This document shows positions 3,353-63,649 of a stretch of 64,000 bases of DNA, in pieces. Each line of letters starts with the position of its first letter. The stretch's first letter is position 1. This DNA is from Callorhinchus milii (lineage: Eukaryota): contig NW_024704743.1 of assembly GCF_018977255.1 (NCBI RefSeq), positions 6,760,001 to 6,824,000 on the forward strand, given 5' to 3'. The notes under the pieces were generated by a model. The model was not told the DNA's origin. It saw only the letters and a list, made by a program, of their open reading frames with translations, and ran no database searches. Position numbers and translations under genes: made by a program.

Positions 3353-3523
3353 CAACAAAGACAACGAGCCTGTACTTCTCGCTGGGCTGCCGCTGGTAAA
3401 AGACCACTTCTTCATAGGTTGGAACATCTGCAGTGTCGTACTGTTCACTTCTTTTACATTCGTACATGGATTTATTCATCTTCCTGTCTTTTCTGCTCAG
3501 TCGAAAACTTCTTCTGAAGCCAG
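3353..3523 (-). CDS. MPP7: MPP7 coding exon (HOOK end, start of guanylate kinase-like domain), 171 nt, phase 1-1
   Basis: Acceptor cttcattcttgcAG, donor TTG|GTaaat. Translates [56 protein letters not shown](G). Confidence 0.96.
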
Positions 3524-14532: not shown

Positions 14533-17006
14533 CACTAAGTTTTTTTTATTATTTGATGGGCAAACTCTTTACATCTTATTTACAACAAGTTGCACTTAAA
14601 TATAAATGAATAATGCACAAAAAACATTATGGAGGACCTTACTGCATTGATTGAAATGGAAGCTCATCAGGATGGAACTAGGAATTGACATAGTTATTTA
14701 TTTTGCTTTTTGATCAAAATAATTACTTGCCCAAAAATTCCTTCATTACACCAATGTCCTGATAACTAATCTTACAGGAAAAATATAGTTGTATTTCATC
14801 CAAACTCAATGTTGCCTCTCCTTTAGAAGGTACACGCTTACCAACGAACATCAATATCAACATATACAGAAGCTTATCTTTTTGGAACACTTCACAGGGA
14901 ATGCAGTAAGTTACCATCTTGTTGTATCATTATTTCCCTTCAATTTATCTTACACAGGGGTTCTGCTGATCAATTCACCAAAAATATTAATGCCTTTTTT
15001 TTCTGAATGGCAAGCTAGGCAATTTTAATTGGTTAAACTACAACCACATTCAGGGATCCCCAAGCCTTGGGTCTTGCCAGCCTGCACCTAATACTTTCTG
15101 AAACTAGGTAAGCAGCATGTGTCCCTCCAGAGAGAGCAAACATTCCAGATAGGGAAATTTGCACTTGTATATATACACACACAAGTGGCCAAAAAGACCC
15201 TTTAACTGCTGGTGCCCTTGGAGGATTTTGTTACTGTTCACAGCATAGTTCCATTTACCACATTCAGAACAGAAGAGGATTACAATTTATGTAATTTTAC
15301 AATTTTAAGGGGAAGTGAATTTTCCAGTGGATTTTCAGCAGCAAAATATTTGGCTTGGAAGACAAAAATGTCATGTATTATAGTTGTTAGGCACATTGAT
15401 GCTTGAAAACTTGGAATGGCTAACCATTTACAGATTGCTGTTGCTGAACCTTTTTGTGCAGGTAGGAAAAGATTGGAACCAGTAGAAAGCGACCCATTGT
15501 CGAGCAAGCTCAAGCCTCTTTTGAGGATTATAAACGAGAATAAGAGTTACAGTAACTTTATTTATACTTTGGTGACCAATACTATGAAAATCACTTCTTA
15601 TCCTCCAGCAGACAGGAAGGCAAAGTCTGAACCGAGGAAACCTGATTAAAATGGCCTGATTTGGTTGGTGTCAGTTTTCTTCCTTTCCCTTTGACACGTG
15701 TGCCCTCACTAGAAGATTTTATGCTACCATGCAATTTACACGTATGCAGCATCTTTCATGTTAGCAAGACGTCTCAAAGTGCTTGGAAGCTGCTGGTTGG
15801 GTACCTCAATTGGGGAAAGATATCAAAAGTGAGGTGAGGGAGTTAGGTCTCAAGATGGACCTTGAACAAGGTAGGGAGGGTGCGAGACAGAGGGACTCTG
15901 GGATGGAGTTCCAAAGAGCGGAGGTAGAATGTCTAAAAGCCTGCCCACTGATAATGGGGGATCTTGTCCCCACGGACATCTAATATAATGTCTAAGTTAT
16001 ACTGGAACACAATAGCAATCATTGCACGTCATTGTGTGGAGCACCCAAGATGTTTAAAGGACAACATCAAATGAGAGTATTATTTATTTTTTATTTAGTT
16101 CATTAATTAATTTGCCTTTCTAAGGACAGAACCTTCGAATGGTAACTTCAAGAGTCGTGAAACCAATCTCAAAACTATATTACAGATTTGAGCATTGAAC
16201 AAGTTGACAGGTTCAAAGATTGAAACAAAGTCTGCAATTTAATTTAGTATCCGGAAAGGCAGTCAGTATTAGTTAGTGAATATGGCAATAACTTGCGAAT
16301 ACACAGTGGACTAAATGGCTCAATGCTGAGCTGCAATATTCAATGATTCTTTCTGCTGCAAAGATCCCTTCATCTTAGACAACGACTTGCAGAGGGAGAA
16401 AGAAGAGCAGTGCAAGGTTAAGGAATGTTCACGATGGCAGAAAGGCTGCTGGGTCTAAACAAAGCAAAATTTGGGATGAAAGAACATTATACTTTAACTT
16501 TTGCTAAAAAAAATTTGAATTAGGGAACTTTTATGTATAGCTTTGTCCTGGGAGATCAAGTGGGATTATGGATAGTGTTACATGTCTAGGCTACCCCTTT
16601 TAGAAACATCAGCAGTATAAGGCAATTCAGTAGTCTGTACTTATTTAAGAAAGGATAAAGCATTTACTTTCAAATGTGATGACATAATTCCCTGTGTAGC
16701 GAGTTAGTCTTATAATCTGCTGATGCTGGAAAAAACAAACTCAGTAGGAGCAATTGTTCAACTGAACCTAAACTACAGTTCTACAATTTGGCTTTGGTTA
16801 ACCAATCTCACATTGTAAGTCAATCTCACTACAGATTTACTGGGATTTTACAAGAGTTGCATACTGAATGGCCTACTCCTGCTCCTATTTCTTATCTTCT
16901 TATAGTTATAAAGTGTTGAGCCATCACAATACCAAGACCCAACAAATAAATAATTCATAATTCACCACTTCATGACTTGCTCAGGTAAAAAAATGGGGAA
17001 GAAATA

Positions 17007-17396
17007 GTGGAGTCCTGTAGCTCAGTGGTTAGAGCACTCAACAACAACAACTTGCATTTATATAGCGCTCTTCACGCCGGGCAGCGTCTCAGAGCATCAC
17101 TCGCTTTGCATTCCCAGCAGGGCGAAACATTGCCTCTGTTTACCCAGCAGTAAGTAGGAACCCGGTTGTTAGTCGATTAGTCGCTTTTCCGGAGATGATA
17201 ATTCCTTCAAAAAAAATAATAATAAATTGGTCACATCAATCCACGACTGTTTGTGGGACACTGCTGTGTGCAATTGGTTGCCGTGTTTAGCCCACAAAAT
17301 ATACAGTCAATTCACTTTATTGTATACTCTGTGAAGCGCTTTGAGACGTCTCGAAGATGACAAGGCGCTATATCAAATGCAAGGATTATTATTATT
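17007..17396 (+). mobile_element. tRNA(Ala)-derived SINE, long variant, interrupted by a short L2 tail
   Basis: Same head and tail as other copies; antisense insert at 17040-17097 flanked by duplicated CACTC. Confidence 0.9.
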
Positions 17397-18024
17397 AATT
17401 ATTCCTGCAATCAGTGACAATAGATAAAACGTCCCAGAGTCCTTGGAATTCCTTCCCTGTATATTCTTATGAGATTTTGTGAAAGATTCTAAGAATCGCA
17501 TTTGCACGTCCACTTGGAAACCACAGCAGTAATCAGCGGTGTATAAGATGCTTTTCTTTGTTGTTTGTTTAACCCAAAACCTTCAGGAATTATTTTGTTC
17601 TAGTGCAGATTCCAATCCTAACTGCACAACGTTTCGTAACTGAGAGACAGGTTTCATGTCTTCCTTCTATACTTCTCGGATAATGTGCCTTTCTTGTAGG
17701 TGATCACTCAGTGTTGGCTCAGCACCCCCAAAACACCTTAACAACCCCAAAATAAGGTTGGGGAAACAACTGCGGTACGCTAGTACCTAACAATAATAAA
17801 TAATAATCCTTCCATTTGATATAGCGCCAAATCACACCTTTGAGACGTCTCAAAGTGCTTCACAGAATACACTGTAAAGTGAATTGAACAAATGCTACCT
17901 TTTAAAATGCTTGTATGTTAATTCATTAACCCATTCTGTTGTCTTAAAACTCTTCTGTACAATACTAAAGCAAATGCAGAACTAATTTGCAAGACACTAG
18001 ATTACTAGAATATTCTCTCTTTGT

Positions 18025-18480
18025 GCGTCGGCCTGGTTCAGTTGGTAGCTCTCTCCTCCGATTCAGCAGTTTGTGGATTCAAACCCCATGTCAATACTTT
18101 GAACTCACATATTCAAGGCTGATACTTCAGTGCAGCGCTAAGATTGTGCTGCATCGTTGGAGATGCCATCCTTCACACGTTAAATTTAAGTCCCGTCTGC
18201 CAGTTCAGGTGGGCATTAAAGATCCCATGGCATTATACAAAAAGAGAATGGAGTTTCTCCCAGTGCTTTGGTCAATGCAGCCCCAAATTAAATTGTCCAT
18301 TCAATTCATTGATGTTTGTGAGCAAAATGAACTGCACTGTTCACCTACATAATACAGTTAATATACTTCACATTATATATTGTGGGTTTTTCGCCCACAA
18401 AACATACAGTCAATTCACTTTACAGTATATTCTGTGAAGCCCTTTAAGATGCTATCATATGCAAGTATTATTATAATATC
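18025..18480 (+). mobile_element. Old Deu-domain SINE (SacSINE1/AmnSINE1-like)
   Basis: tRNA-like head, then the Deu-type core ...caggtgggcattaaagatcccatggcatta...gagtttctcccagtgctttggtcaa. Family assignment is from recalled consensus. Confidence 0.75.
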
Positions 18481-19222
18481 CTGAGATGCACTTTAAGATG
18501 TCCTCGTAACGTGAAAGGTCAATATTATATTTTAAGTATTATTATTTGTTAACTGTTTGCAAAAATGCTCAGAACTGTTCAAATCAATGTGCCAGCGCCA
18601 TAATTCTTAATCTCAGATTGATACACAAAATAAGAACACCCATATTACAAAAATCTGCATTATAAATGCGGCAAGCTTACCAAATACAATACCACTATCA
18701 GAATTTATCCAGTGTATGAGCAGGCATTCCACAGACCCAATTCTAGCCTACTCACGAGCAGTGTAATGTTAAATGTGGCATAACTGGCGAGACTGCCAAA
18801 CTGTGCCGATTTTATGTGATGAGCTTTCTTGCAACTCAAGGGCGACCATAACGTATGAGTTGCAGTTGAAAAAATAAAAGTCACGCTGAAGTCTATGAAG
18901 TATCCCTTTATAGTCCACTAGTGTACCACTGTATTCAACTGAGAGATCAAATCTGTAAAAAGGTTGTGGTTCTGCCAAATGTGCTTATTTTCCATTGTAA
19001 TGTCTAAAGAAAACATGATAGAAACGCAACAAATGTAAAATTCCAATGATGATAATGAATAATAAATAGCTTCAAAATGTTTCCAAGTTGAAAATCGATG
19101 TGTAAAAGTAAAAGTTCAGAAATTATCTTTGATTGGATATCAGTGCAAGCAAAGCAGAATTGTATTGTTTATTTTTTGTATTTACAATACAAATTTATAT
19201 TTATATAGTGTCTTTCATAAAA

Positions 19223-20660
19223 TCATAGAATTACACAGCACAGGAGGCCATTTGACACATCGTGTCTGTGCCGACTCTTTGAAAAGAACTATCCAATTCA
19301 ATCCCACTCCCCCGTTCTCTCCCCATAGCCCTGCAAACTTGTCCTCCCCAAATAATTATCTACTTCTCTCTTAAAAGTTGTTATCGAATCGGCTTCCACC
19401 GCTCTTTCAGGCAATGCATTCCAGAACTGAACAACTTGCTGTGTGAAAAAATTTCTCCTCACCTCTGTTTCTGTTAACAGCGATTTTAAATCAGTGCCCT
19501 CGGGTTCATCCTATCATACTTTTGAAAACTTCTATCAAGTCTTCTCTTAACCTTCTCTGCCCCAAGGAGAATAATCCTAGCTTCTCTAGCCTCTGCTGAT
19601 AACTGAAGTCCCTCATTCCTGGTACCATCCTGGTAAATCTCCTTTGCATCCTCTCCAATGCCTTGACATTCTTCCTCAAGTGTGGTGCCCAAAAGTGAAC
19701 ACAGTACTCTAGCTGAGGCCTATCTTATAAAGGTTCATAACTTCCTGACTTTTGTATTCTATGCCCCTATTTATAAAGCCTATAATGTTATAATAATTAT
19801 TATAATGCTATAATGATTATTATAACATAATATTCCCATGCTTTTTTTTAACAGCTTTATCTGCCTGTCCTGCCACCTTCAAAGATTAATTTATATGAAC
19901 CCTCAGGTCTCTCTGTTCCTTCACCCCCTTTAAGATTGTACCATCAGCTTATATTGCCTCTCCTCATTCTTCCTCCCAAAATGCATTACTTTACATTTCT
20001 CCACATTAAACTTCATCTGTCACGTGTCTGCCCATTTTATCAGTCTGTCTATGTTTATTTGCAGTCTGCTACTATCCTCCTCACTGTTTACTACTTTTCC
20101 TAGCTTATCATCATCTACAAACTTGGAAATTGTACTCTCTATATCCAAGTCCAGGTCATTTACAATGGTGCCAATAGTGACCCACGGGGAACACCATTGC
20201 ACACGTGGAGTCCTGTAGCTCAGTGGTTAGAGCACTCGCTTTGCAAGCGAGAGACCTGAGTTCAATTCCAGGCAGAGGGCCAAACCTTGGGCAAGTTTCC
20301 TTACTCCACACAGAGCCTAATAATAATCCCTCCAAAACAAAACAATAATAAATTGGTCATTTTCAATCTACGACTGTTTGTGGGACATTGTTGTGCGCAA
20401 TTGGCTGCCGCGTTCGCCCACAAATATACAGTCAATTCACTTTACAGTGTGTTCTGTGAAGCGCTTTGGGACGTCCTCCCGACGTGAAAAGCGCTATATC
20501 AAATGCAAGGATTATTATTATTATTATTATTATTATTTCCTCCTGTCAGAAAAACACCACCAGTCTCTGCTTTCTGTCTCTCAGCAAGTTCTGTATCCAC
20601 TGTTCCTTTAATACCATGGGCTTCTATTTTGCTTACAAGTCTCTTATGTGGCATGTCATG
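19223..20660 (-). mobile_element. CR1 LINE 3' fragment (RT C-terminus and 3' UTR), split by a SINE
   Basis: PHKRLVSKIEAHGIKG (~20590-20650) and NDLDLDIESTISKFVDDDKLG...RLQINIDRLIKWAD (~20025-20160) are CR1 RT motifs. Confidence 0.9.
20205..20536 (+). mobile_element. tRNA(Ala)-derived SINE, short variant, nested in a CR1
   Basis: Full head to (ATT)n tail; CR1 ORF2-like sequence on both sides. Confidence 0.93.
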
Positions 20661-21206
20661 AAGATGCCTCACAGTGCTTGATAATGCTAACTGGGAACCA
20701 CAGATGTGTGGGGAGGGGAAAGATGATAAAATGCAGTCAAGATTTAATGCAATGTATACTGATTGTGCGTTTGTATGAAAAACACAGCAGTGATTTGTGC
20801 ACAGCAACATCCCACAAGCAGTCATTAAGTAAAGGGTCTGACACCAGGTGAACTCATTAACGACTTCTTCCTTTAGATGTGAGCAGAACATTAGACTGAT
20901 CTAATCAAATCTGTGATGTAGCTAGGTCAATCTACAGTCCCTCAAAATCGCAGTGACTGTAAAGCCAAACCTTAAAGTATGTATGAGCTCATGAAAATAC
21001 TTTACAATGGTTTAGATTTCCTAGTATACTTTTGTCAACTTTTGTTGACATTTGTTAACATTTAACATTTTTAAAGATTTTTTTTTAAAAAAAGGTATCT
21101 TTACCTGATTTGTTTTGTTGAATCTCTCTCTAGCCAACTCAGGCTGGCTGTTGAGATCCAGTGCTGCAGTAGTTTAAGAACAGTCTTAATCTTGATTCAA
21201 ACCCAC

Positions 21207-21275
21207 CTTTCATGTCTCTGCTCAAATTCTTGTAAAGATCCCAAGTAAAAGTGCTTTCTAACGGGGTTGAATCCA
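21207..21275 (-). CDS. MPP7: Candidate MPP7 HOOK cassette exon, 69 nt, phase 1-1
   Basis: ttctgacctgttttgtgcAG|TGGATTCA...ATGAAAG|GTgggt. Open in the required frame: (V)DSTPLESTFTWDLYKNLSRDMK. Confidence 0.7.
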
Positions 21276-21477
21276 CTGCACAAAACAGGTCAGAATTTTG
21301 CACCAAACTGGCAATCTCACTTGCACAACCCATAAGACAGTGTGAAAATTATCATCTTAGTGCCATATGAGATATTCTTCTAATATTGCAGTTAAGGTAT
21401 ACTATTGAAGCAGTAGAACTAGGGCCTACTTCCACCTTGTGTTTCAAAAGTACAGTACTATCAAATCCCTAATTATC

Positions 21478-21787
21478 GTGGAGTCCTGTAGCTCAGTGGT
21501 TAGAGCACTCGCTTTGCAAGTGAGAGAGAGACCTGAGTTCAATTCCAGGCAGAGGGCGAAACCTTGGGCAAGTTTCCTTACTTCACACGCCTAATAATAA
21601 TCCCTTCAAAAAAAAAAACAATAATAAATTGGTTATTTTCAATCCATGACTGTTTGTGGGACATTGCTGTGCGCAATTGGCTGCCACGTTCGCCCACAAA
21701 TATACAGTCAATTCAGTCTACAGTATATTGTTTGAAGCGCTTTGGGACGTCTAGAAGACGTCAAAATGCAAGGATTATTATTATTAT
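21478..21787 (+). mobile_element. tRNA(Ala)-derived SINE, short variant
   Basis: Same head, body and tail as the 8832 copy. Confidence 0.92.
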
Positions 21788-22619
21788 ATCACTTCTGAAA
21801 ATAATCTTTCAGATCTGAAGGTGCATTATTAAATTTATTTTGGCAGCCATTGCTAATCTTTCAAATCTGTAAAAACACTATGCCTATAAAAACTGCTAGC
21901 AGTTTTTTTTAAGAACAAAAAACAAAACCTTTGTTGTGTTCTATTTTCTTCTATTTGATTACATTTCAGATTGAAACTGGGCACAACATTATCTTGAATG
22001 GTTACTTTGGTTGAAACCCAAACCTTTTAAGAATTGAAACTATTACATAATTTTATCTTGAGATGTGCTTTTATCAAAATATATAGTAACTACACTTTAC
22101 TGGTAATTCTTTGAAGTATTTTGAGATAGCCTCCTCACGTGAGAAGTGCTAAAGCAAATGCAAGGATCATTATTGTCATTAGGCTGATGTCAGATGCAGT
22201 TGCAGCCCTTCGCCTCACTTTCTTTAAATAAAATGGAAGTACATTGTAATGTGACATAAATATAAGTGTGGGGTAGATCTAACAAGGAATTTCGGAGGGG
22301 GTGATGAGAATGTGGAAATCACTGCTAGAAGCTGTGGGTAAAGCAAATAGCATCAATGTATTTGAGACTAAACTTGATTTATACATGAAGGAGCATGGAA
22401 TAGAGGGTTATAGTAGGGCTGAGGCTCTGTGGAGCTCTAAACACCATTATGGACCTTCCGTGCTGCATCATTCGTAAAACATTTAAAGGTTATAAACAAA
22501 ATAACTCCCATGGTGTTCTGTGCTCTTTGGAAGCTTTTTTTGGTCAGCGGAGTTTCTAACCCATCACCATGCTGAACTGTATCCAAACCAGACAGAGTTC
22601 CACATACGCATGCAAGTTC

Positions 22620-22917
22620 TGGAATCCTGTAGCTCAGTGATTAGAGCAGTCGCTTTGCAAGTGAGAGACCTGGGTTCGATTCCCAGCAGGGCAAAACCGT
22701 GGGCAAGTTTCCTTACTACACATGCCTGATAATAATCCGCCAAAAAATAAATAAATAAAAAATTTGGTCACTTCAATCCACGACTGTTTGTGGGACACTG
22801 CTGTGTGCAATTGGCTGTCGCGTTTTGCCTACAAATTCACTTGTATATTCTGTGAAGCGCTTTGAGACATCTAGAAGATGTGAAAAAGGCTATATCAAAT
22901 GCAAGGATTATTATTAT
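22620..22917 (+). mobile_element. tRNA(Ala)-derived SINE, more diverged copy
   Basis: TGGAATCCTGTAGCTCAGTGATTAGAGC...AAATGCAAGGATTATT. Confidence 0.9.
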
Positions 22918-24745
22918 ATATTAAGTTGCTTCAAACAGTTGTCTTGCAGAAGAGCAGTTTCAAAGATAGACATGCCAGAATACAATGGCTAAAATTGTTT
23001 TTGCAGAGCTTCAGCAGTGATCTCTATTTCCCCTCAGTGAAATTTGTAAAATGCGAATTTTACAGGAATTTCCCCCTAAGTGTTAGATATTCACTATCAG
23101 AAAGCAGGTTCCTGGCCCCTCAAGCAAACACTTATTTGGACCAACACTGTGAGGATAGAAATTCAAATTTTACAAATAATTTAATCTGCAATGAGTTTAC
23201 AATTGTAAATATTTTTAAATATTCATTATCGTCAAACAAATTAACCTTTCTAAGCACGGAAAACAAGAGAATTTGCACATCTTGCATTTGATACAGTTCA
23301 TTAATATATTAATAATGAATCGACTGCAGTCATTTAAATTCAATTAACTAGATACCAAAAGAGTTTCATTTACCATGTCAAGACAAGAACAAATGACATT
23401 TGTATAGCGCCTTTCACGTCGGGGAGATGACCCATGGCGCCGAGCAGTCAAGGATTTGCAACCGAGCTGGGGTTGGGATCAGGATTAGTGGAGGGCAGGG
23501 AGGATGGGGATACAGGGTGACTGAAGACACAGTTGGGCTTTGAAGGAGTCAAGGGAGGGGGCGAGGCAAAGGGACTGTGGGATGATTTAGACAGAAAGAT
23601 TTAGAAACGTAATTCCAGAGAATAGTGCATAGTAGCTGAAAGCCTGCCTGCTGGTGGTGGGACACAGGGGCAAGCAAACAGATCGAGCTGAGGAGAAGAA
23701 CAGGAGAGTGAAGCTGAAGGTGGTCACTCTGAGATCACAGTTCTGCAGGTTCCTCTCACCTACTTACAGCTCGAAAATTCCCATCAATATCTTAGAATTA
23801 ACAACATGAATAGTAATCCTTGCATTTGATATTGCGCCTTAACACACCATCGAGACGTTGGAAAGCATTTCACAGGGTTCACTGGAGAAGTGTAGTGACT
23901 GTGTATTTGCAGGCTAACGTGGCAGCCGAATTTGTGTAAAGCAATATCCCATAAACAGCCACAAAGTGAATGCCAATTCTATCTAGGGGACTCTTGCCCC
24001 GGAAACCAAAAGAAACTCTCCTCTTGACTTCACTCGCAGTCACTTTGTATGTCAGTGAAAGGGTTAATTTTAAAAAAGCAACTCTGTTGGTAAAATATTC
24101 GTCCTTGAAAGTCTTCTGGAGAAGGGCTCCCAAAGTGTAGAAATATGAGTGCAAGTCATTCCAGACTGTTGTTGATTAAGACAAAGAGGATACTTTCGAG
24201 ACAACTTTCATTTTTTAATTTAAGTTAGCAGACACAGCTGAAAGCATTGCAGCTAAAACATGGAAAATTGTGCCTCATAGCATGAAATCATGCAATGTTG
24301 GTGCCACAATAGACAAGACTTAAACATATTGTTGAAGCCAGAGGTAAATCTGCAGAGGACAGAAGTGCTTACAAATGCAAGAGACTTTTTTTAAAAAAAG
24401 ATCTTGTCAAGTGGAACATTTTTTGTGGAAGTCAAGCCATCATTAAATTACAAGACGTTGTCAGTAATTCTGATTTACTCTCTTTCCCCCATCGCTGTCC
24501 CTGTTTTTAGTTCTATAGAAATCAGCTGTAACTCATCTGACTGGAATGAATGGAAACCAATTGAAAGTGAAAAACACTAGCGTCAGCCCTGCAACTCCAG
24601 GGTCAATCTTGGTTTCCTAGTGATCAGCACTGGATATTCTGTGGCCTGTATGCCTTGCACAACGTATATAGAGTAATTAAGGGTTAAAAAATATAGCAAA
24701 CTTACATAATATTACAACATAGTTTTCTAAGCATTTTGCATAATA

Positions 24746-25065
24746 CAGTGGAGGCTAACTAATAATGCGGAGGTTGGGATCCATAAAATCATTGTGTTTG
24801 CATGCACCTGGTCAGTTTGATTTCCCTGCCAAATAATAGCACAACTTCCGGGTCGCTTCCGACATCATTTTCTGGGTCCCGCGTGTGACCACAATGTACA
24901 GGAAGTGACGGCAGCATCTAGGTTGCTGATTTTTTTTTGTGCAGGAACCAGTCAGCGTGAGAGAGCCAAATAAGCTGCTGTGTGCACAAGGAAAGAATGG
25001 GGTCCACATACTATTTGTGTGATAAACAAATCAGCGCTGTAACAAAGTTATAATAGGGGGCATTG
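24746..25065. mobile_element. Tigger/pogo-like MITE (old)
   Basis: TA|CAGTGGAGG...GGGGGCATTG|TA with degenerate inverted ends, flanking TA and a repeated subterminal motif (gggatccata / ggggtccaca). Confidence 0.55.
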
Positions 25066-27036
25066 TACATAGAGGGTTATGTTGAATTTTGCTCCTCCTT
25101 CACTTTAATCATAAGGATGCAATTCACAGCACTTTAATGATTAAAATTCTGAAATCCAGTTCCCCAATTGCCTACAAGATGAAGTGCCAAGCAGAGCAGG
25201 ACACTGGCCGAGTTTTCCCTCCTTGATCCCGGGAACGGGGGTGGGTGGGTAGGCATGTGGTGGAGAGTGTTTAGGCAGCTGACACCAACAGTAGCGCCTG
25301 AATTATAGACATGTCTGCTATCAGCAAACTTAGCAGAGACAGAGATTCAAACTTGTGAGCCACGTGGAACAGAGGGTCAGAAGTCTGAAGCCTGGGCTGT
25401 GCTAAATTAGCTGATATGAGTCATGGTTATAGTTTAGGCACAACTGCTGGACTCCACCCTCTCTGGATTGAGGGGAGAGGGAGGGAGGGAGAGTGGGGCT
25501 GGAGGGGAGAGAGAGTGGGGTGGGGGGGTAAAGAAGAGGAGAATGAAATCACATCCTGACTGCTATCAGGAGACCCCTGCTGGAAACTGCATATTTCGAT
25601 GTCGGATGGGGACAGAACAGAAAATGCATTTGATGAACCTGTTAAAGCTTGAGGTCAACACTCACACGTGAGTAATAAGCACTCAGCAGGAGGTAAGAAA
25701 GAGTGACCATGTGTAGAACTTCTCCTCAGCAGAAGGAAAAAGGAGCCAAAATGACTTGAGTACAGAAAGAGCAAATAATGAAGGAAAAAAGCTGGCAGAA
25801 TAATACATTGAAAACACTGACTAATTTTTAATCAACCTGAAAACTTTTAATTGCCTTCCCAAAAACTAGTGAACGCGTAAAACCGCAGATTGCAAAACAC
25901 ATCAGTGAAGCATACACTTAATATATTTTGACAATTTACTGCAAGAGAACAAAATTCCTTGAAACCTCGTCACGGTTTATAAACTGATGATAATAATCCT
26001 TGCATTTGATACAGGCCTTACCACGTTGTTGGGATATTTCAAAGCGCTTCACAGAATATAGTGTAAAATGAATTTACTGTATATTTTGTGGATGATAATG
26101 ATGTTTCCACAAATTTATTTTCAGGTAACAATGCATAAATTAAATTGACAGAAAATACTGTACCATGAAAGCTCTTCTTGCATACTAAAAGCCTCAATAT
26201 AAACTCCAAAATTTAGACCTTTTGCTTTTCTGCATTAATTGGATTAACTAAATATAATCAGAGCATTCACCAACTGACTGGTACAAGTATCTGTAATGTT
26301 ACAGATACACTATGGACCAATTCCAGTAAAAGGTAGCAGTCAACATGAACCCTGCACTACCGACAACTGTTAATTTATAGCTCCATTTCACAGAATCGCC
26401 TGACTGATATTATAAAAACATTGCTATTGGATGGTACTGAATTAAAAAGAAATTCTGGAAATAACTGGACTTAACATTTCCACTCATTTCATTCAAGCTC
26501 CACTGTCAAACAGCCAGAATACCAGCCGCAAATCTCGGCTGTTTATGTGGTCTTTTATTCAGAGACTCAACTTGTAATTCTAGTAAGAACATGGGGCCAT
26601 AGTAGCTCTTAACCATAAGAGAGTGATTTAACTGTTACTTTTACACTGTCAAACATCAGAACGTGAAAGAATACCTGCAAAATGTTGCTTTTAAAAATCT
26701 CAAACTTTGTGACCATTGAGCCAAAAACACCAACGAATGCATGAATCCTCATATCCAGCTTCAACAAAAAATTAAATTGCTTCTGAAACTGGAACAAATG
26801 ACCGTAATAGAACATTCAGTTCTCCCGGTTAATCCAATATCTCTGCATTGTGCTTTATCCAGTGCATGAAGTTCAACTGTAATGCTTTCAGTTATTTCTT
26901 GCATAATTTTAATAGGTTAATTTAGTTTTGTTCCACATATAGATCAGTCTTCTCCTAGCATTTCATCAACAAATGGGAGGAGACCACTCCACACGAACAC
27001 GCGATGACGCGAGGAGGACACAAAGATCCAGAGGAC

Positions 27037-27361
27037 AATAATAATAATAATAATCCTTGCATTTGATATAGCGCTTTTCACGTCGGGAGGACGTCCCAAA
27101 GCGCTTCACAGAACACACTGTAAAGTGAATTGACTGTATATTTGTGGGCGAACGCGGCAGCTAATTGCGCACAGCAATGTCCCACAAACAGTCGTAGATT
27201 GAAAATGACCAATTTAATTATTGTTTTTTTTTTTTTTGGAGGGATTATTATTAGGCGTGTGGAGTAAGGAAACTTGCCCAAGGTTTCGCCCTGTCTGGAA
27301 TTGAACTCAGGTCTCTCACTTGCAAAGCGAGTGCTCTAACCACTGAGCTACAGGACTCCAC
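27037..27361 (-). mobile_element. tRNA(Ala)-derived SINE, short variant
   Basis: Reverse complement nearly identical to 20205-20536. Confidence 0.93.
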
Positions 27362-29446
27362 AATGCGCTTGTGAGAAAAACAGCTGGGATAGCAGTAAAA
27401 AAAAATGAAAACAATAATTTGCATTTATATAGTGCCCCTCATGCAGGGTAGCATCCCAGAGTACTTTATAAAAATACCAAGGAGATTGATACTTGGGAAG
27501 GAACTCCCCTTCAGAGAAAGAGGGAAAGAAATGGGAATTTTTTTACATTTTTATAAACTATTTTTCAATTTTTGCATCTTTTTGTCAATAGTGAATAATG
27601 GTGAACTGAGGAATGGATGACAGAGCGATCACTGAGTCAAAGTCCCGACATATGGTTTGAACCCACAACCTTCCGACTCAGGCGAGAGTGCGACCAAGTG
27701 AGCCAGGCAGAAGCAGTTGATAAAAGATTCCACCAATAGAGGTGTTCAAGGTAGTCATTCTAAAACTCTCCTACCAGTCAGTGCTTGAACAATATTTAAT
27801 GGAGACTTGGATCACAAATAATTTCTAATTCAGAAGTACCAGATACCACAACACCATCAAGACACCTGCATTTTTGGTGTGTAACAGGAATTCAGATTTA
27901 TTGACCAATTTATTTATCCATTTATGCTCTGCTCGAGTTTCAGGCAGTAAGGACATATTGCGTAACTATGGTCTCAAGTTATTCTCATGAGCCCCAAAAG
28001 CCACTGGCAGGTTAAGTGGTAACTGGATGGACCGCTACAATCAGAAGGCTCATTCCCTGTATCAATGGACTCTGTGGAGGGAATGGAATACATCAGACTA
28101 ACTTTGACTCAGTGATCACAGCAGAGGATACATCCCAGCTCTCTGCAAAAAAGTAATTGCCAATTATTTCACTGATTTACAGAGATGCTTCTTTCACTCA
28201 CTTAAATGTAGGATACCTTAACTATTATAAGCCATGCTTGCCAGTCACAGAGACACCCTGCGCATTTGAAGCTGTGATGAAGTGAACTCATCGGTTAGCT
28301 TAACCTGCTGCTTCTGGCTTTCGAGGTCCAACTAGACTTCTGTAGCCTTTGCACCTCCGTTGTGACTCCTGGCTCCACGAAACCCCGGAAACAATCTTGT
28401 GTCATCCCCCCTCTCTCCGAGTCCATGGGCCTCAGCTTGGAAACCACTGGAGTAGGCAACCTTAGACACAGATATCCTTACTATTGATCTTTTTGTTATC
28501 AGTTTGCAATGAAATTTCCATAATGAAAATACTGCTATTGCCAACAATTACCATACAATAGGCTCCAGTATTTACATAAATCCCCTAAAAAAATTCAGAT
28601 ATTCCTTTCCCCCCAGGATACAAGCCTCAATGTGAAACTTGTTGCCTTGATGGCTGCATTTTGCATTTTGTTTTTACAAGTCTAGGCAAATGCATTCAAC
28701 CCAACTTTCCTGGCTCAAACCAATTCTAGTTCTTTCAACTTTACATCACGATATTAGTGACATAGCCTACATGATACGTAAGCAAAAGAATTATAAAACA
28801 GTTGTATAACATTGAAAATGTGCATTATCAAGTAGCTTTTCGTCCACAAAATATACAGTCAATTAACTTTACATGATATTCTGTGAGCGCTATATCAAAT
28901 GCAAGGATTATTATTATTTTACTGGATCTGATTGTATTGCTATAGCTATGTTATGATCAAAGATCAGTAGTTATATCTAAGGTACAGAAAGACAATTTGC
29001 AGACTTACGTTGCAGATTTAAACAATCAAATTATTCACACTGATAACAGCTGCAGGAACAGCAGTGAGAAAATGGGCACCACTGTATTTCACTTGTTTTT
29101 CACAGCAGCATTCTTGAAGCAATCACAAGATTGGATTTCAATAATTAAAGGTAGCACTGTGACACATGGGTATGGGCACATTATAGCGCACGTTGATGAG
29201 AGAATAAATTAATTTGAAAGGAAATTTAGTAAATTTGCCACAAGCTCTAAAGGTAGATAACCAGCCATTCTAAGACGTGGAAACAAAGCTATTTGGTGCA
29301 ACAATATTTAGATTTCCATATAAAAAGGTCTGGTTCTCATCTATCTTTTTCTGAGCCACTGTCAAGAAAGGAAATGAGAATGAAGAAATGAAACAACTAG
29401 CAGACAAGAAACAAAGGATTAGATTGCTCTAAGTCTATTTGCTCAC

Positions 29447-29488
29447 CTATATAGAGTCCGTTGATAACGCCACCATATTCAGCATCTT
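29447..29488 (-). CDS. MPP7: Candidate MPP7 HOOK cassette exon, 42 nt (39 nt with the distal NAGNAG acceptor), phase 1-1
   Basis: Branch-like ctctaac, pyrimidine tract, cttcctcCAG|AAG|ATGCT...ATAG|GTgagc. Reads (E)DAEYGGVINGLYI, resembling the insert I recall before AG(F/L)RRSFRL in fish MPP7 isoforms. Confidence 0.8.
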   Translation of the reverse strand, partial: KMLNMVALSTDSI

Positions 29489-32400
29489 CTGGAGGAAGGG
29501 TATAAGCACAAAGAATAAAGGCCAGGAAAAGAAGCAGAGTAGTTAGAGGTTCAGCCACAAATGCAGATACAAAGCAAGCCAACAAGCTAAGGTAAAGTAA
29601 TCTAAATTTCCTCAGGTTAACCAAGAATTTGCAGCTGTCAACATTAAATGCGATAGAATACTACTTTGTATATTTCTGTAGATGCATTAACAAATGATTT
29701 GGTTAATAGCAAAAAAAGTTACTTTAAACCAATACATTTTGAGAGCAAGCTTTGGTTTATAACTCAGAAATTGCCTTTGTGAAAATGGCAACTCGGAAAG
29801 CTCTAATAGCTTTCAAAACTTAAGTGGAAAGCAGTGCAGGATGTTATTCTAATTGTACACAAGAGCTATGGTCATCTGCATCATTTAGGTATTATTCTCC
29901 CTTTCTCTGCCTCCCACCTCCAGCCAAGTCAATCCGTACAATTGGGCGTTGGCTACAAACTGCACTTCAAATTAATGTTATTGCTGTTAACACGATGAAC
30001 ACTATTCACCAGTGCTTATTTTTCCTCCCACCACAATTTCCTTGTGATCGTTTAAAAGGAAGAGAATCATTTTAACTGAACGAGACAAGTTTTAAGTGGC
30101 ATCTTGTTACATCTGGCAATGTGTGTTGTAATTACTAGGTAATTTGAAAATGCTATTTATTCTGTAAGGACTGGCGAAAAACATACATTCAAAAACAAGT
30201 CGGAAGTAAATACTTGCAGTACTTATGAAGATTTAAACCCCTCTCACCATCTCCCTCACCCAGGTGGACAATCTACAAAGCATTCAATAGTGATGCACAC
30301 TGATGTGCTATATGCTCAGGACAGAAATACTGGCATTATGATGGTGTAAAGTTCACTTAAAATAGAATGAAGATTGCAGTGGCTGCACAAGACATAAGAA
30401 ATACAAAGAAAGTTTAAAATAAAATCTTGTGAATGATAAATCAGATTCTAATCAACAAAATGACGACTGATTTCAAAATGTTGATTTGCGGGATTGACAG
30501 GATCAATGATTCAATTTAAAATTCAGAAAGGAATCGAATGGAATTAGAGAAATTTCTCGAATGCTTTCTGTTAAATTGCTTTATTTTTATCCCCATTTTC
30601 CTTTCCCAATCAATACTTGCAGTCGATTTGGTGACCAGTTGAGTTGTGGATTAATTTCTTAGTTTCTTATAAGAACAGAGTTCTGGTTGTAGCATTGCAG
30701 AAAGGAAATTAGTTAATGGAAAAGTACAGGTTCCCGAGTGATATCAAGGAGTGAAGGGACATACTTATAAGGATTGACTCAGAACAATTAATTGGTTTCT
30801 ATTGGGAAAAGAATGTTGAATGGGGACTTGAGGTCTTCAAAATTCTTAAAAAGATTCTGAGAATATATTCCCAATGCTTATTAAATTTGTGAGGAGAGAG
30901 AACAAGCTCAAAATTGACATTACAAGAGTTAAGAGGGAGGCTGGAAAAATTTTCACAGGGGGTGGGGGAGGGGCAGGTGGTAGAATATAGAATGTCTTGC
31001 CACATTGACACTGGGCCTTGGGACGTCCTCCTGACGTGAAAGGTGCTCTACAAATATAATTTGTTGTTGGTAATTCAAACGGAGACCATACATTTCAAAG
31101 GAAATTAGATAAACATTTGAAGAGAAAGAATAGAAATGGTTACAGAAAAAGAGCAGGGAATAAGAGATTAGAGTTTTGGGTTCACAGTGTTTGGGCAAGG
31201 ATAAGCTTTGAGCTGTGGTGTGTGTGTGTATGTGTGTGTGTAATCCAGTGTTCGAAAACATCCCAATCCTGTAGGTAACCAGCTGTGAATTACGTCACAG
31301 CAAAGGAACATCACTATGATGCAAGCTCCCGTCTGAGGAGTGTTGGAACAGTGTTCTCATGCAATGGAGTGTTCTCATGAAATGGCACATTGCACATTTT
31401 GAGCTTGTTGGTGGAATAATACGTCACACCCTTAAGCTTAAAGCATAATGAAGACCAATTCACAACACTATTCTCCACCCATAAAATCCAATTTTTAAGC
31501 AGTTTCCCAAAAATTTTCAGCGGAGGCTATTTTTGGGGAATCTTAATCTGCAAATTAAGAGTATGGAGAAATTAACATTTTTGAAAAAAAACTGTCCTAA
31601 TGTTTGAGTAGTTTTATTACTGAGACACTAATAGCTTCTCAGCATCATTACATGAGCTAAAAATGTACACCAACTGGTTAGAACACAAAGACAGGAATCT
31701 CCACACAACCAATGGCAGGTTAAGGTTGATGCCCAAGACAGTGAGGTGGAAGGTGTCACTATTTTCATCATCTTAAATCCCCGCTTCCTCCACGGGAGAG
31801 CCTCACAATGTTGTATTTCAATTGTCAGCTTGCCACTTTCATGAGCTAAAAAGGGAAATGTAACCTAGCTCTGACAGAAGCAACATTTGACGAGGCTCCT
31901 CTTCTTCTGAGTAAGTGATTGTTGGGAAGATTGTCAGGCGTCAGTGCCAACGATGAAATAGATTCACCGCCTTGACCTCCTTCAAGTCATTCTCTGTCCT
32001 CGGAGTGTCTCCAAGACTCCCTTTTCCTGTATACCTAGATTTATCTCTGAATTATTGCCAGATTTGACAAAAATTAACCTTTTCAAAGTCACTCGAACAC
32101 CAAGCTGTCACAATTATGCATCTATTCGAAAAGATCAGAGTTCTTGTAACCTTACTCTGATGTGCTGCAGTAAATCAAATGAACTTACACTGTGTTTGTA
32201 ATGACATTTGATGGCATGATTTGGGTAGCAATTCACTCGTAAATGTCCAATATAAACAGGGACACGCATAGAGCAAATCAATAAGGAGCACTGCTCTTGA
32301 CATCACCTGGAGGAGGAATCACACTGGACTTGATCCACCCAAGATCTGCTCAAAGCTCTTGGATGACCATTGGGCGACCCAAGAACTTTGAATGGATGTT

Positions 32401-33051
32401 TTGAATGCTCTGAACGAGTCCTGTGATGACACATTAGAAGCCAAACATCCAATATTTATATAAGCAGAACACCAAGAGCGGGCACTGGCTCTTGGCAATG
32501 CAACAACAGCATTATCGAACAACAATCGAGAGATGCAAAACATGTGTTTCCCTCTGGACACAGTGGTGGCAGAAATCCAGTGCACCACTTGCTGTGAAAT
32601 TCCAGCAGATATTTGTATGCTATTATTCTACCTCAGCCCATTTTTCAGGAAAATCTCAGTGAATATCAGTGCAGCACAAACTTCCCACGTTGCAAACAGA
32701 ACCGTTAAACAATTGTGAACAATGGACTACAAGTCACAATTGTTTCTGTTCTCTTTGTAAAATAGTGTTGAGAGACCACCAACGAATTATACATCTCACT
32801 CACAACTGCAAAGAAACAATTGCTGAAACAGATTCACATCACATTAGGTTTTGCCAAAAATGAATTAACATAACATGACAATAGCTTCCGTTCTGCAGTC
32901 AAATGAAAATGCAAAAATACCTTCAGTTTCCTCTGGGAAGCAGAAAGGAATTGAAAAACCGCAAGATTAAAATGGCTAGAAATGAAACTGATCAAAATTA
33001 TTACTGCGATTAAATCACTTAATGAAAGACAGCAAAAGAAAGATAACCTAC

Positions 33052-33072
33052 CACTCTCAACAGTTTCCTCAT
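33052..33072 (-). CDS. MPP7: Candidate MPP7 HOOK microexon, 21 nt, phase 1-1
   Basis: Long U-rich tract then ggctgttctaAG|ATGAGGAAACTGTTGAGAGTG|GTaggt. In frame it reads (Y)EETVES. Confidence 0.75.
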
Positions 33073-35149
33073 CTTAGAACAGCCAAAAAAAACAGAGGAA
33101 AAAAAACAGAGATTTTTGCCTTTTTATAACTATCAACAAGGTAAAAAAATGAACACTCAAAACCACTTAACTCACTTGGAACAGATAGGATTTGCAATCA
33201 GAAATGGGTACGTCGTGCAAATAGACAGAACATTTCCAAGGTTTGTTAAGCTCAACAGTCTTTGCATTCCAGGTTGAAAGTGCTTTCCTTAAAAAAAATA
33301 CCAGCCTTGCATTTGGATAGAAAACAAAAATCTATAATTTTCTTTGATAATTTATACTAAGTTTGCCAATAAATGATTCACTTGGGAGTCTCAAATGTTG
33401 GGCCTTGGAATGCAATCCACTTTTTTCCTATAATATATTTTTCTGAAGTAATTTTCAATGCAATATAATTTTTATAACCCCCGGCCATTGCTTTTACTAA
33501 CATAAAAGAGTAAATGTTTCTGCATAAAGATATAGGTTCGGCGTCAGGATAGCTGTCTTTACTTTCTCCATTTGGAGCATTTATATTATACTAGCGTTTG
33601 TTTATCATGTACCTCATCTTGTGAACAGATCTGGCAGAACACTACACAATCAATAGTTTGAGAGTTAATGTCCTTTTTGGAAATAGAATCGCAGTCTATA
33701 TCACTGTATTTAGACTTGTGCCTTTCTGACAATTTAGTCCCTTAAATCACACTTATGGTCTGAGCCTCCTCCTCTTGGTTTACACAGATTCAAGAGAAAG
33801 GGTACTAATTTTTAAATTATTTTATGTCTAAAGTACTCAAGTTAATTAAGTAAACTGATTAAGAGAAATTCCTGCAAGAAGTTCCCACTACAGATGAAGT
33901 TCATTGCTGCAAGATGTAAAATTGCTTGCAAATAACTGCTTTACATTATTTCTAAACTTTTGGCCTTTTGAAAATTGGTACCATGCACAAAGCATTCTTT
34001 CTTTTGTCTCTGTTCAAGTTCAAATGCAACTGAATGTGGTACCGCAGTTGAGACAAAACTTGGTGGTTAAACTAGGTTACATCTTGTTCAAATGAATAAC
34101 ATTTGGATGCAGTTAAAAACTTCCTCCTGTTCATGTGGTCTTAATTCCATAAATCGAAGTTAAATAAAAATGAAAAAATATAACTAAACGCTATCAAAAC
34201 TTGTAGGGACCTTATAATGTACGTTTACAAGCCATTTCTGGTGCTGTAATAATGTTCAAAATTGTCTAGGGTAACAAAAGGTACAGAGGGCTTCTTTTAA
34301 TTCATTCATGGAAAATGCATATTTGAGAACATGGCAGTCCAGCTGCTTAAATCAAACACTTAAAAAAGAGTACATCATGTTTAGTATTAAATTGCCATCG
34401 TTGTTTTTTTTCCAAATAGTTGGGGAGACTGAGACTTTGGAAAGAATTTGACTGCAGCAGTAATGTGACTGTTTCTCCTCAGGCAACTACAGTGAAAAAT
34501 ATAATTCTTTGAACTGATGTTCCCCCCAAATAACCACCATATTTCTATCTCAGGTGAGAATTCTATAACCAGAGCTCCTGTAATTCATTCTGGTTCTGGC
34601 AGCATGGGACAAATTAATAGGGACTAAAAACTGGCAAGTTTTTCTTATTTTAAAATGTTGTATCAATTGAACTAATCGCAGTCGTAAAATGGAACTCAGA
34701 ACATGTCAAATGTTCGTACTGTGAAATGAAGCCACAGGCAAACAAGCTTCCAACATTTATCAGAGGTGAAGGTTAAGGAAGCAACTCAAGACTCAACATA
34801 GCATAGCATTCCACTGCCAACCAGGTGCTCAGTATTTTAGAGGCCCTACTGTCGTAATTTTCTTTCATCAATTTGGGGTTTCACCCCTTCACGGGCACTG
34901 CCCGATATGAAATCTCGCACGACACTGGGATAAATCAAGGTGTGGCAAGGTTGGAAGGGCAACAGCATTAAGCCTTCCCTGGTTGGCAGAATGGTGAGCA
35001 GCCTGCAAGATGGGAGAAATGGAGGAAAGACTCAAAGAAGCAGATCTAAAATGACTGCACTGAAACATCCAGGATTGTATTATCTAAAGATATTTACCGA
35101 AACATTCAAGTAAAAACATCTATGGCTAGCAAATGGGTTATTGACTCAC

Positions 35150-35214
35150 ATGATCGTCTACTGGAATTCCTTTGTGGTTGAACAAATGCTACAGGTCTTC
35201 TAAGTGCAAATCTC
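35150..35214 (-). CDS. MPP7: MPP7 coding exon (HOOK), 65 nt, phase 2-1
   Basis: Acceptor tctttctgcAG, donor T|GTgagt. Translates (R)RFALRRPVAFVQPQRNSSRRS; phases fit both neighbours. Confidence 0.92.
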
Positions 35215-35732
35215 CTGCAGAAAGACAATTACAAGAAGAAAGTTGATATTGGAGCCATAGGTAATTCGAGTGAAATAGAAGAGGGGAAAAGCACAGGAAA
35301 AAAAACATATACTTCCATTTTAATCTTGCAAATAATCTGAAGAAAACAATGCAATAGATTTATGTGCAGACAGGATAAATCCTTCAGTTTTCAGACTTTG
35401 GTAGTGGAGCCAGAAAATCTGAAACCAAGAGCAAGCCTTGCACATCAAACTGTGGTGTGCTGTTTCCATGCACCCTTTTCCAAACTGGAATGCCACTGAT
35501 GCTATCATTTACTGTCATTACTTCGAGTTTTGAGGAAATCCAAAATATTTTGGCATTGATTTTGCACAGTAATTATATTATACACAAACATGCTGTTTTC
35601 ATACCAATGCAATCAGAAAACAAAGCTTTTTCAAAGATATCTTCTTTCAATTTGCATTTTTGCACAAAACTATGCTTATAAAGCTCTGCCACATGATTAT
35701 GACACTGTTGTGGCTGTATATTTAGTAGCTAC

Positions 35733-35929
35733 CTCTCCTGGAACTGCTTTGAAGGGATTAGACCTGCTCTCAGATTGGCATCACACTCGCGCTTGGCTTG
35801 CCACCAGGTTCCATCATCTTGGCTGACGATCTGAAGGATATCTCCCTTCTTGAAAGAAAGCCCAGCTTCTTTACATGGAATAGCTTTATCCTCGTTAGGA
35901 TCATAGTCAAACAGGGTCCTGACAAACAT
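35733..35929 (-). CDS. MPP7: MPP7 coding exon (SH3), 197 nt, phase 0-2
   Basis: Acceptor tgttgccAG, donor AG|GTagct. Translates [65 protein letters not shown](R), a MAGUK SH3 domain. Confidence 0.97.
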
Positions 35930-36279
35930 CTGGCAACAAAAGAAAACATTTGTGTGTCAGATCACAACAGCTCCTCCAATTGTGAACAATTTACATGGCA
36001 TTATTGTAGGCACGCTGTGGAAAGTGAGCAAGAGGCTAAAGCAATTGAATCCTCATTTTGATGTTTGGGGGACGGGGACGGACAAAGCAGAAAAATATTC
36101 ACAATATTGTCAAAACACTTTAGTAACCAACATGAATAATACAGAAGGGAGAAAAGAGACCATGAGGAGAAAACCGAAGACTGGCCAAATAAAACAATAT
36201 TCCTCAGTTCAAAAGATTGAATGCATTATGGTTGTGCTTCAGTTGTAAGGACCCCAATTTATCATAGAATCAGAGTTGA

Positions 36280-36975
36280 GCTAATCTTTCACAATCATAT
36301 CTAAAGCTTTCAGAATTTAGATTGCTAAGAGGGAATGATCTCCTCTGGTCCATCTCCATAGACGTAATTTTTTGAGCCAATAAAATCATAACTATAACTC
36401 CTCATTCCTGCTTTTCTATACCATCCTTTCCATGGCTCCTTTACATAATGAGGTGCCCAAAACTATGTGTATTGTTCCAACTCTGGGTGAAGCAATGTCC
36501 TGCGTTCCAATTAGCATCACTTCCTTGCTTTTTATTGAATACCCCAGGTATTTTACTCAGTACATAAAATTAATCATAATCCTTACTTCTTTGGCCTTTT
36601 CCACCTGCAGTACCACCTTCAAAAATCTGCATATCTGTACGGCTACATATCTACATTTCTCAGCATCAGAATATTTTATGTCTTTGTTCTTTGTCCCGAA
36701 ATGTATGACGCCACATTTCTCAATTTTAAACTGCGTTTACCAACTATCGACCACAAAATACACAAAGCCACAAAACTTGTATCCAAAGTATCATAGCTTG
36801 TTTCTAAAGATACCTTGTGAATACGTCTCTACGACGTGATAGGGCGCCAGATCAAATACAAAGATTATTATTGTTATTTATTATTATCTACCCACTCTGC
36901 TGTGATGTATGTCCTCCTTCCTCAGCTTTCTATATCCTAGATTTGGCAACTTCAGCAAACTCAGAAATTATTTAA
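36280..36975 (-). mobile_element. Degenerate CR1 fragment with nested SINE tail
   Basis: gtgcccaaaact...ccaccttcaaaaatctgcatatctg...cccgaaatgtatgacgccacatttctc parallels the 19223 CR1. Confidence 0.65.
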
Positions 36976-51759: not shown

Positions 51760-52050
51760 GTAGCTCTACACTGATAATTTTAGCGCAGTTTAGCTCACGC
51801 TGGTAGCAATTCTACAACAGCATTGCTCACAATCATAGCAATTTTATAACTGCTTTGCTAACATTGTTTGCAATTTTATGATGACTTTACTGACACTGAT
51901 GAAAATAGTATGATAGCTTTGCTCATATTGATAGAATTTTTTATAATGGCTTTGCTCACAAAGATAGCAATTTTATAATAAATTAGCTCACACTAAATTT
52001 TATAGCAATTTAGTTCACACCGATAATTTTAGAAGTTTAGTTCATAGCAG
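51760..52050. repeat. Degenerate ~32-bp minisatellite, about 9 units
   Basis: Recurring unit resembling gctcacactgatagcaattttataatagcttt. Confidence 0.85.
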
Positions 52051-56249: not shown

Positions 56250-56688
56250 CAGTAAAAGTCACATAAGTCGTATCACTTGGGTCCATAACATTTAATGTGA
56301 CGTGCAAAGTATGAGTTGTGGCAAACTTGCATAAGTTGCATCATATATGATTTATGTAAAGATCTGTATAAGTCGGATTTTATACGACTAACACATAACA
56401 AATGCACAAGTACTGGCTGGTGGCATTAAGGCAAGGTTTCAAAATGGAAATTTTCAGCCCCATCAGTTTCTGGAATAACCAGTTTTATGTATTTTTCAAC
56501 CAATTTTACTTTCTGTATATTTTTCGTTTGAATGTTCCTGTTGTCTTCCTTGATTTGATTGTACAACTAGTGTAAATACATTTAAATGGATTTAATAGGA
56601 AATTGAATAGGACTTGGGTCCTATGACTTGGGTATGAACTTAGGCGATTATACGATTTATACAGATCAGATTTAGGCTAGTTTTATTG
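56250..56688. mobile_element. Tigger/pogo-like MITE (old)
   Basis: TA|CAGTAAAAGTC...CTAGTTTTATTG|TA; repeated internal acttgggtcc and tatacga motifs. Confidence 0.6.
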
Positions 56689-56691
56689 TAA

Positions 56692-57965: not shown

Positions 57966-58000
<35 letters not shown>

Positions 58001-60737: not shown

Positions 60738-60741
60738 ATTC

Positions 60742-63640: not shown

Positions 63641-63649
63641 TGAGCGCTT

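Follow-up and report, generated by a model that had tools for sequence, protein, structure and literature searches.

Exon layout of the MPP7 HOOK region

The window, as we call the whole 64,000-nt stretch of Callorhinchus milii DNA that was analysed, contains MPP7 exons that are identical to those of the C. milii records. A tblastn search with the isoform record P0123 placed the SH3 exon at 35932-35732, followed by the HOOK exons and then by a match at 3524-3351. PALS1 structures aligned to MPP7 residues 135-292 and 375-599, the gap between the two blocks being the HOOK region. Mapping and structure alignment together set the cassette exons described here between the SH3- and GK-coding exons of an MPP7 gene. 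They lie in a host intron of 31.6 kb (Table 1), and the exon downstream of it showed 100% identity with four C. milii records. Within the intron, the 21-nt exon is followed after 119 nt by the 12-nt exon, which is separated from the 42/39-nt exon by 3432 nt. All the segments considered (21, 12, 42/39 and 69 nt) are multiples of 3 and in phase 1-1; those of 21 and 12 nt fit the microexon rule (3-27 nt, multiple of 3), and the 42/39-nt exon is short without being a microexon. The first-pass annotation had described three segments, of 21, 42/39 and 69 nt, with AG/GT bounds, and all of them are seen in the sequence with the position, length and phase given for them. The set was nevertheless incomplete: it overlooked the 12-nt microexon, which belongs to the long isoform as annotated.

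Table 1. Features of the MPP7 HOOK region, in window coordinates
Feature	Position	Strand	Remarks
Upstream MPP7 exon of 65 nt, in which HOOK begins	35150..35214	-	ends in T, phase 1; matches C. milii records
21-nt microexon	33052..33072	-	in RefSeq X1 and X4; mouse 21-nt Mpp7 exon NEURAL-UP (probable orthologue)
Candidate SRRM3/4 element: UGC at -10 from the acceptor of the 12-nt exon	32940..32942	-	
12-nt microexon	32921..32932	-	in RefSeq X1 and X4; human and mouse 12-nt exons probable orthologues (length, order, spacing)
42/39-nt cassette exon	29447..29488	-	tandem (NAGNAG) acceptor 29488/29485; 42 nt in RefSeq X1/X4, 39 nt in X2
69-nt AG/GT-bounded open segment, probable pseudo-exon	21207..21275	-	no record, no homolog; chance level 0.23
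Downstream MPP7 exon of 171 nt, carrying the basic motif, the remainder of HOOK and the beginning of GK	3353..3523	-	

Twenty-four exon combinations were built from the window and compared letter for letter with stored proteins, and three of them equalled stored proteins exactly. The product that skips every cassette corresponds to seven C. milii records, including RefSeq X3 (XP_007903646); inclusion of the 39-nt form alone gives RefSeq X2 (XP_007903645; P0004); and the 21+12+42 combination gives RefSeq X1 (XP_007903643/4) and X4 (XP_042202822) (P0123, P0124). The MPP7 isoforms measure 576, 589 and 601 residues. Both inclusion and skip products are on record for the 21-, 12- and 42/39-nt exons, and these exons are already known, being present in the RefSeq gene models for C. 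milii, whose isoform entries are predicted models. The suspicion that some of the exons, here those of 21 and 42/39 nt, might already be annotated was borne out; the description of them as hidden was not, the cassettes being contained in X1, X2 and X4. UniProt record P0005 carries an odd HOOK segment that does not map cleanly to the window. Contigs of 4 of 13 runs, assumed to be RNA, over 17000-36500, a stretch that excludes the downstream exon, have no bearing either way; the tables of joints (15 listed, 239 unlisted), loose ends and pieces were filled with repeat-derived rows, and among the rows listed none touches a cassette.

Conservation and splicing of same-size exons

Homologous inserts were found in rays, bowfin, dragonet, lungfish, Xenopus, axolotl, turtles, squamates, alligator, birds, deer, sheep and ibex. 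Between chimaera and deer MPP7, the insert is identical at 19 of 26 positions and the flanking upstream exon at 14 of 22. Conservation was judged at the protein level and mammals were represented by three ruminant genera (the region search with the insert gave 7 proteins from 10 candidates). On these protein comparisons, the three-member cluster (21, 12 and 42/39 nt) is conserved from chimaera to mammals, and the cartilaginous-fish copy dates it to the jawed-vertebrate ancestor. The ruminant records, together with human and mouse splicing tables, show that the cluster is not confined to non-mammals. HOOK inserts private to a lineage also occur elsewhere, with 7 aa in frogs, 10 aa in lacertid lizards and 14 aa in dragonets.

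Published tables contain MPP7 exons of the same sizes. Upon SRRM4 expression in HEK293 cells, the PSI of the human 12-nt exon HsaEX0039996 rose from 0 to 93 and that of the 42-nt exon HsaEX1024120 from 0 to 57 (PMC7935315 S4 Data). The mouse 12-nt exon MmuEX6000123 shows a PSI of 93 in retina, 49 in neural and 3 in other tissues, and the chicken 39-nt exon GgaEX0010525 shows 77, 34 and 8.5, respectively (PMC9303857 file 2). A mouse 21-nt Mpp7 exon is listed as NEURAL-UP (PMC8395343 Table S2), and rows for mpp7, mpp3 and mpp4 were absent from the supplements of PMC13281805. These SRRM3/4-dependent events belong to the same gene and have the same lengths (12, 42/39 and 21 nt) and the same order as the exons of the window; the mouse 21-to-12 intron measures 122 nt against 119 nt in C. 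milii, whereas the 12-to-42 intron measures 1336 nt in human against 3432 nt. Judging by length, order and spacing, the human, mouse and chicken events are probably orthologues of the chimaera exons. The measurements come from human cells, mouse and chicken; by analogy, the chimaera may regulate its cassettes as those species do, and the tissue-specific inclusion anticipated at first pass appears likely from these tables.

In excerpts of PMC12871342 and PMC9303857, a UGC near the acceptor is described as an SRRM3/4-type motif. Such triplets lie at -10 and -31 of the 12-nt exon and at -20 and -48 of the 42-nt exon, and none was found within 60 nt of the 21-nt exon acceptor; they are present also at constitutive exons and at the 69-nt segment. 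Pyrimidines make up 75-82% of the acceptors of the 21-, 12- and 42/39-nt exons, where stretches free of AG extend over 41-96 nt. In such a scheme, SRRM3/4 would switch the cluster on in neurons and retina.

Junction stop codons and the 69-nt segment

With a terminal T in the upstream exon and exon starts of AG (12 nt) and AA (42 nt), 10 of the 24 combinations contain a stop codon. Joining the upstream exon directly to the 12-nt or the 42-nt exon creates the stop, and what can follow it stop-free is the 21-nt exon, the 39-nt form or the doubtful 69-nt segment. The 12-nt and 42-nt forms thus depend on the 21-nt exon, and cassette inclusion is hierarchical, not freely combinatorial. The claim that the segments are all open held for 21+42+69, which keeps an open frame and lengthens the product by 44 aa (from 78 to 122 residues), and failed for the full set of combinations; as a protein, the 21+42+69 product matched none of the 152 proteins compared. 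NMD would be expected to remove the stop-forming junctions, leaving the 21-nt exon as a gate for the 12-nt and 42-nt forms. MPP7 has just two rows among the 314 exons of the SRRM4 list, neither of them a human 21-nt exon, and a gate in human would thus be hypothetical.

That these stops amount to a selected gate is another matter. We regard it as probable that they are a by-product of phase-1 exons starting with Glu after a terminal T, and that one regulator co-includes all three exons. AA and AG exon starts are likely in an acidic insert, SRRM4 co-regulation explains joint inclusion, and in lungfish the middle piece opens with Asp, which would give no stop there. Two observations pull the other way: the stop-implying Tyr/Glu junction residues recur from chimaera to deer, and rays, bowfin, axolotl, turtles and alligator all retain the short acceptor that rescues the frame.

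The 69-nt segment, for all its AG/GT bounds and open frame, is likely a chance look-alike and not an exon. None of the 11 C. milii records contains it, and the 42/39-nt exon, carried by 66 of 177 anchored records, joins directly to the downstream exon in all 66. Its peptide yielded no homolog: among 336 proteins the best local score was 34, against 119 for the peptide with itself, and a protein database search with the frame gave 6 candidates, not one of them with an E-value of 10 or less, which is a weak blank. Splice sites were scored with an ad hoc matrix built from consensus frequencies, using 200 shuffles of the 31.6-kb intron; shuffled introns held on average 0.27 open pseudo-exons scoring as well as the segment, and 23% of shuffles had one or more. 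The score was rejected as a discriminator, the real 21- and 12-nt exons standing at chance level themselves (70% of shuffles reach 7.1). The acceptor of the segment is 55% pyrimidine with an AG-free run of 30 nt, a measure that cannot exclude it because the tract of the downstream constitutive exon is equally poor. Against these records it seems unlikely that the segment is a genuine fourth cassette, limited to holocephalans and spliced in a tissue that the annotation lacks, such as retina. In its favour, it ranks second by score among 8 intron-scan candidates, ahead of the 21- and 12-nt exons that are real; its donor is good, a branch-point-like CTGAC lies at -18, and UGC occurs four times. 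It is also open after every upstream member, lies outside the window's repeat family and would join the private inserts of frogs, lacertid lizards and dragonets. In the exon set of the first-pass annotation, then, the 21-nt and 42/39-nt members are real cassettes in RefSeq, and the 69-nt member has no record or homolog and splice scores at chance level.

Free combination of the symmetric cassettes into many independent HOOK variants, as first proposed, is highly improbable and at the codon level is refuted for C. milii by the 10 stop-containing combinations: every cassette is indeed a multiple of 3 in phase 1-1, and the records do hold partial forms (21 only, 21+12, 21+42 and 39 only) beside the full one, but in the insert table of 177 records the 12-nt-type piece always comes with the 21-nt-type piece and the short acceptor is the one used in all 28 records where the third exon stands alone, a pattern of stop-free forms that is expected by construction because annotation pipelines drop stop-containing forms.

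HOOK charge, proposed function and related MAGUKs

The net charge of the HOOK region is +12 in the skip form, +11 with the 39-nt form only and +3 with the full insert, in keeping with the earlier expectation of an acidic insert beside the basic HOOK motif. AlphaFold gave pLDDT <50 across residues 302-374, with the insert at 318-343, and predicted no ordered structure for it. Full inclusion would add an acidic, predicted-disordered 25-residue insert beside the basic motif, and this insert would weaken or redirect binding to the motif, tuning HOOK binding. Candidate partners are PALS1/MPP5, the protein 4.1 family, calmodulin and acidic membrane; the MPP7-PALS1 interaction is mentioned in a background sentence in an excerpt of PMC12781724.

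All in all, we give a probability of about 85% to the reading that MPP7 carries a conserved HOOK cassette cluster (21, 12 and 42/39 nt), already in the C. milii gene models and likely switched by SRRM3/4 in neurons and retina, which would add the acidic insert and thereby likely tune HOOK binding, the 69-nt segment likely not being an exon. A bolder version appears doubtful to us. There the cluster would be a splicing logic gate under selection that predates the MPP3/4/7 duplications, with the 21-nt exon as key and the 39-nt form as a charge-neutral escape; it would force a three-step charge switch (+12, +11, +3) setting Crumbs-complex or protein 4.1 partners in photoreceptors and neurons, possibly with a private chimaera step of 69 nt.

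As a discovery the cluster has little weight, the exons being in RefSeq, and catalogues for human, mouse and chicken listing same-sized exons as neural, retinal or SRRM4-responsive. Our search of open-licence PubMed Central and bioRxiv found no paper testing the effect of the insert on MPP7 or noting the junction-stop dependency, and the cluster offers a ready test case for the tuning of a disordered MAGUK linker by microexons.

Similar inserts are found in the paralogues. In MPP3 and MPP4, as in MPP7, an acidic stretch ending in Gly-x-Tyr-Ile/Leu immediately precedes the same basic motif; MPP3 of birds occurs in a +21 aa form and a skip form, and in fish MPP4 a 5-aa middle piece is present in some forms and missing from others. 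The sequences have diverged from MPP7, the exon boundaries are deduced from proteins only, and some MPP3/MPP4 skip forms may stem from tiny exons left out of the gene models. These counterparts suggest that the cluster is older still than the jawed-vertebrate ancestor. The likeness to DLG1/SAP97 is one of analogy, with no homology claimed. There, according to excerpts of PMC9307800, alternative splicing of inserts I2, I3, I4 and I5 in the disordered HOOK between SH3 and GK alters charge and partner binding, and the I2+I3 combination also gives a stop. The DLG1 inserts keep the HOOK net positive and I2 and I3 are mutually exclusive, whereas the MPP7 pieces are acidic and additive.

Cassette exons of the MPP7 HOOK intron

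The minus strand of the window carries part of the MPP7 gene. The exon that follows the HOOK intron (3523-3353) showed 100% identity with MPP7 in four Callorhinchus milii records. When the 601-residue record P0123 was compared with the window by tblastn, exons for PDZ, SH3 and HOOK were placed along it. Because MPP7 residues 1-104 gave no confident match in the last 14 kb (49932-64000), the upstream intron likely extends beyond the window.

The first-pass annotation had proposed freely combinable cassette exons of 21, 42/39 and 69 nt in this intron. Their positions were right, and all three segments have AG/GT edges, a length divisible by 3 and phase 1-1; the 42/39 nt choice corresponds to a tandem acceptor. 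The set was nevertheless incomplete, as a 12-nt microexon had been overlooked. When the 24 combinations of five pieces between the flanking exons were compared with 152 proteins, 3 had exact matches, all to predicted gene models of C. milii: the skip product (7 records), the product with only the 39-nt form (RefSeq X2) and the 21+12+42 product (RefSeq X1 and X4). The 21+42+69 product put forward earlier had no exact match among these proteins. The exons of the cluster are already annotated in C. milii and catalogued in splicing tables of three other species. All in all, the cluster is real, one member had been missed, one likely false member had been added and the freedom of combination had been overstated. 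In a further C. milii record, P0005 (UniRef A0A4W3HNX0), an unrelated HOOK segment that maps poorly to the window replaces the 65-nt upstream exon (35214-35150); this segment is probably a gene-model error.

Features of the MPP7 HOOK intron (window coordinates)
Feature	Position	Strand	Remarks
HOOK intron	35149 to 3524	-	31,626 nt
21-nt exon	33072-33052	-
12-nt microexon	32932-32921	-	119 nt past the 21-nt exon; in RefSeq isoform X1
42/39-nt exon	29488/29485-29447	-	acceptors 29488 and 29485
69-nt segment	21275-21207	-
9-nt candidate	12561-12553	-	in-frame AG/GT; chance-level score
45-nt candidate	4431-4387	-	in-frame AG/GT; chance-level score
~320-nt repeat	21475-21787		copies near 8832, 20204, 22620, 27041, 77-87% alike

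Junction codons and conservation

The upstream exon ends in T, so that its junction with the 12-nt exon creates TAG and that with the 42-nt form TAA (35150 to 32932 or 29488), and 10 of the 24 combinations carry a stop. The junction codon is TAT with the 21-nt or 39-nt form and TCT with the downstream exon. Free combination of the cassettes is thus ruled out by these codons in this species; since their split codons at the upstream junction are stops, the 12-nt and 42-nt forms require the 21-nt exon, and the 39-nt acceptor restores an open frame after the upstream exon. Transcripts with such stops, having many exon junctions downstream, are expected to be removed by nonsense-mediated decay, and clearance of stop-forming MPP7 transcripts by this route would be a candidate step.

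From 185 database records we retained 177 anchored on both sides of HOOK, leaving out 8 that lacked an anchor. The set is redundant (several isoforms per species) and its counts are not independent: 93 records skip all pieces, 66 include the third exon and the remaining 18 have other inserts, either partial or private. The third exon alone used the short acceptor in 28 of 28 records and the middle piece was never seen without the first among the anchored records, a pattern that agrees with the junction codons; annotation pipelines would discard stop-containing forms regardless. Lungfish has Asp where the middle piece begins, and the human SRRM4 list has no 21-nt MPP7 row (PMC7935315); a selected gate therefore stays a candidate only.

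Inclusion forms were found in rays, bowfin, dragonet, lungfish, Xenopus, axolotl, turtles, squamates, alligator, birds, deer, sheep and ibex. Between chimaera and deer, 19 of 26 insert residues are identical, against 14 of 22 in the upstream flanking exon. MPP3 and MPP4 records contain a comparable acidic stretch that closes with the same Gly-x-Tyr motif and is followed by the basic motif, with inclusion plus skip or partial forms in MPP3 (P0190, P0200, P0345, P0349) and MPP4 (P0196, P0353, P0354), which suggests that the HOOK insert module is older than the MPP3/4/7 duplications. Lineage-private HOOK inserts occur in frogs (7 aa), lacertid lizards (10 aa) and dragonets (14 aa) (records P0107, P0170, P0175; P0071 cluster; P0163 cluster).

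The 69-nt segment

That the 69-nt segment is a genuine cassette exon appears improbable, and this member of the proposed cluster is likely false. It has a good donor and a branch-point-like pentamer, private inserts are known in the three lineages just named, and it ranked 2nd of 8 intron candidates with an ad hoc splice-site matrix; the same matrix gave an equally good candidate in 23% of 200 shuffled introns. The segment is absent from all 11 C. milii records, and in 66 of 66 third-exon records that exon joins the downstream exon directly. Its peptide scored at most 34 among 336 proteins (self 119), and a database search, which is weak evidence, returned no match. The 9-nt and 45-nt candidates were found in no record examined. 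The ~320-nt repeat, SINE-like by size, lies 200 nt from the 69-nt segment without overlap.

Putative effect of the insert and probable neural regulation

In P0123 the insert corresponds to residues 318-343. AlphaFold with a 72-row alignment gave pLDDT <50 over residues 302-374, and solved PALS1 constructs lack a matching stretch. From the SH3 end to the GK-leading strand, net charge is +12 in the skip form, +11 with 39 nt and +3 in the full form (+4 in the deer full form). MPP7 is said to bind PALS1 via SH3-HOOK (PMC12781724), members of the protein 4.1 family interact with MPP HOOK regions (PMC10606877), EPB41L5 and MPP5 being a case (PMC2982133), and DLG1 HOOK splicing alters calmodulin binding (PMC9307800). 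Given real exons, the odds are about even that the neighbouring basic motif is shielded or displaced by the acidic insert, as would happen in neurons and photoreceptors. A search of open-licence PubMed Central and bioRxiv found no functional study of the MPP7 insert; subscription literature and closed bioRxiv supplements may contain more.

Published splicing tables report that SRRM4 expression in HEK293 raised PSI of the human MPP7 12-nt exon from 0 to 93 and of the 42-nt exon from 0 to 57 (PMC7935315). PSI in retina, neural and other samples was 93, 49 and 3 for the mouse 12-nt exon and 77, 34 and 8.5 for the chicken 39-nt exon (PMC9303857). The mouse 21-nt exon is listed as NEURAL-UP, with PSI 0.13 vs 0.40 in two islet models (PMC8395343). 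UGC triplets, an SRRM4 element (PMC12871342, PMC9303857), lie upstream of the 12-nt and 42-nt acceptors, and none lies in the 60 nt upstream of the 21-nt acceptor. If both tables share an assembly, 122 nt separate the 21-nt from the 12-nt exon in mouse, and their order is that observed here. The chimaera 12-nt exon equals in length both the human exon strongly induced by SRRM4 and the mouse exon enriched in retina.
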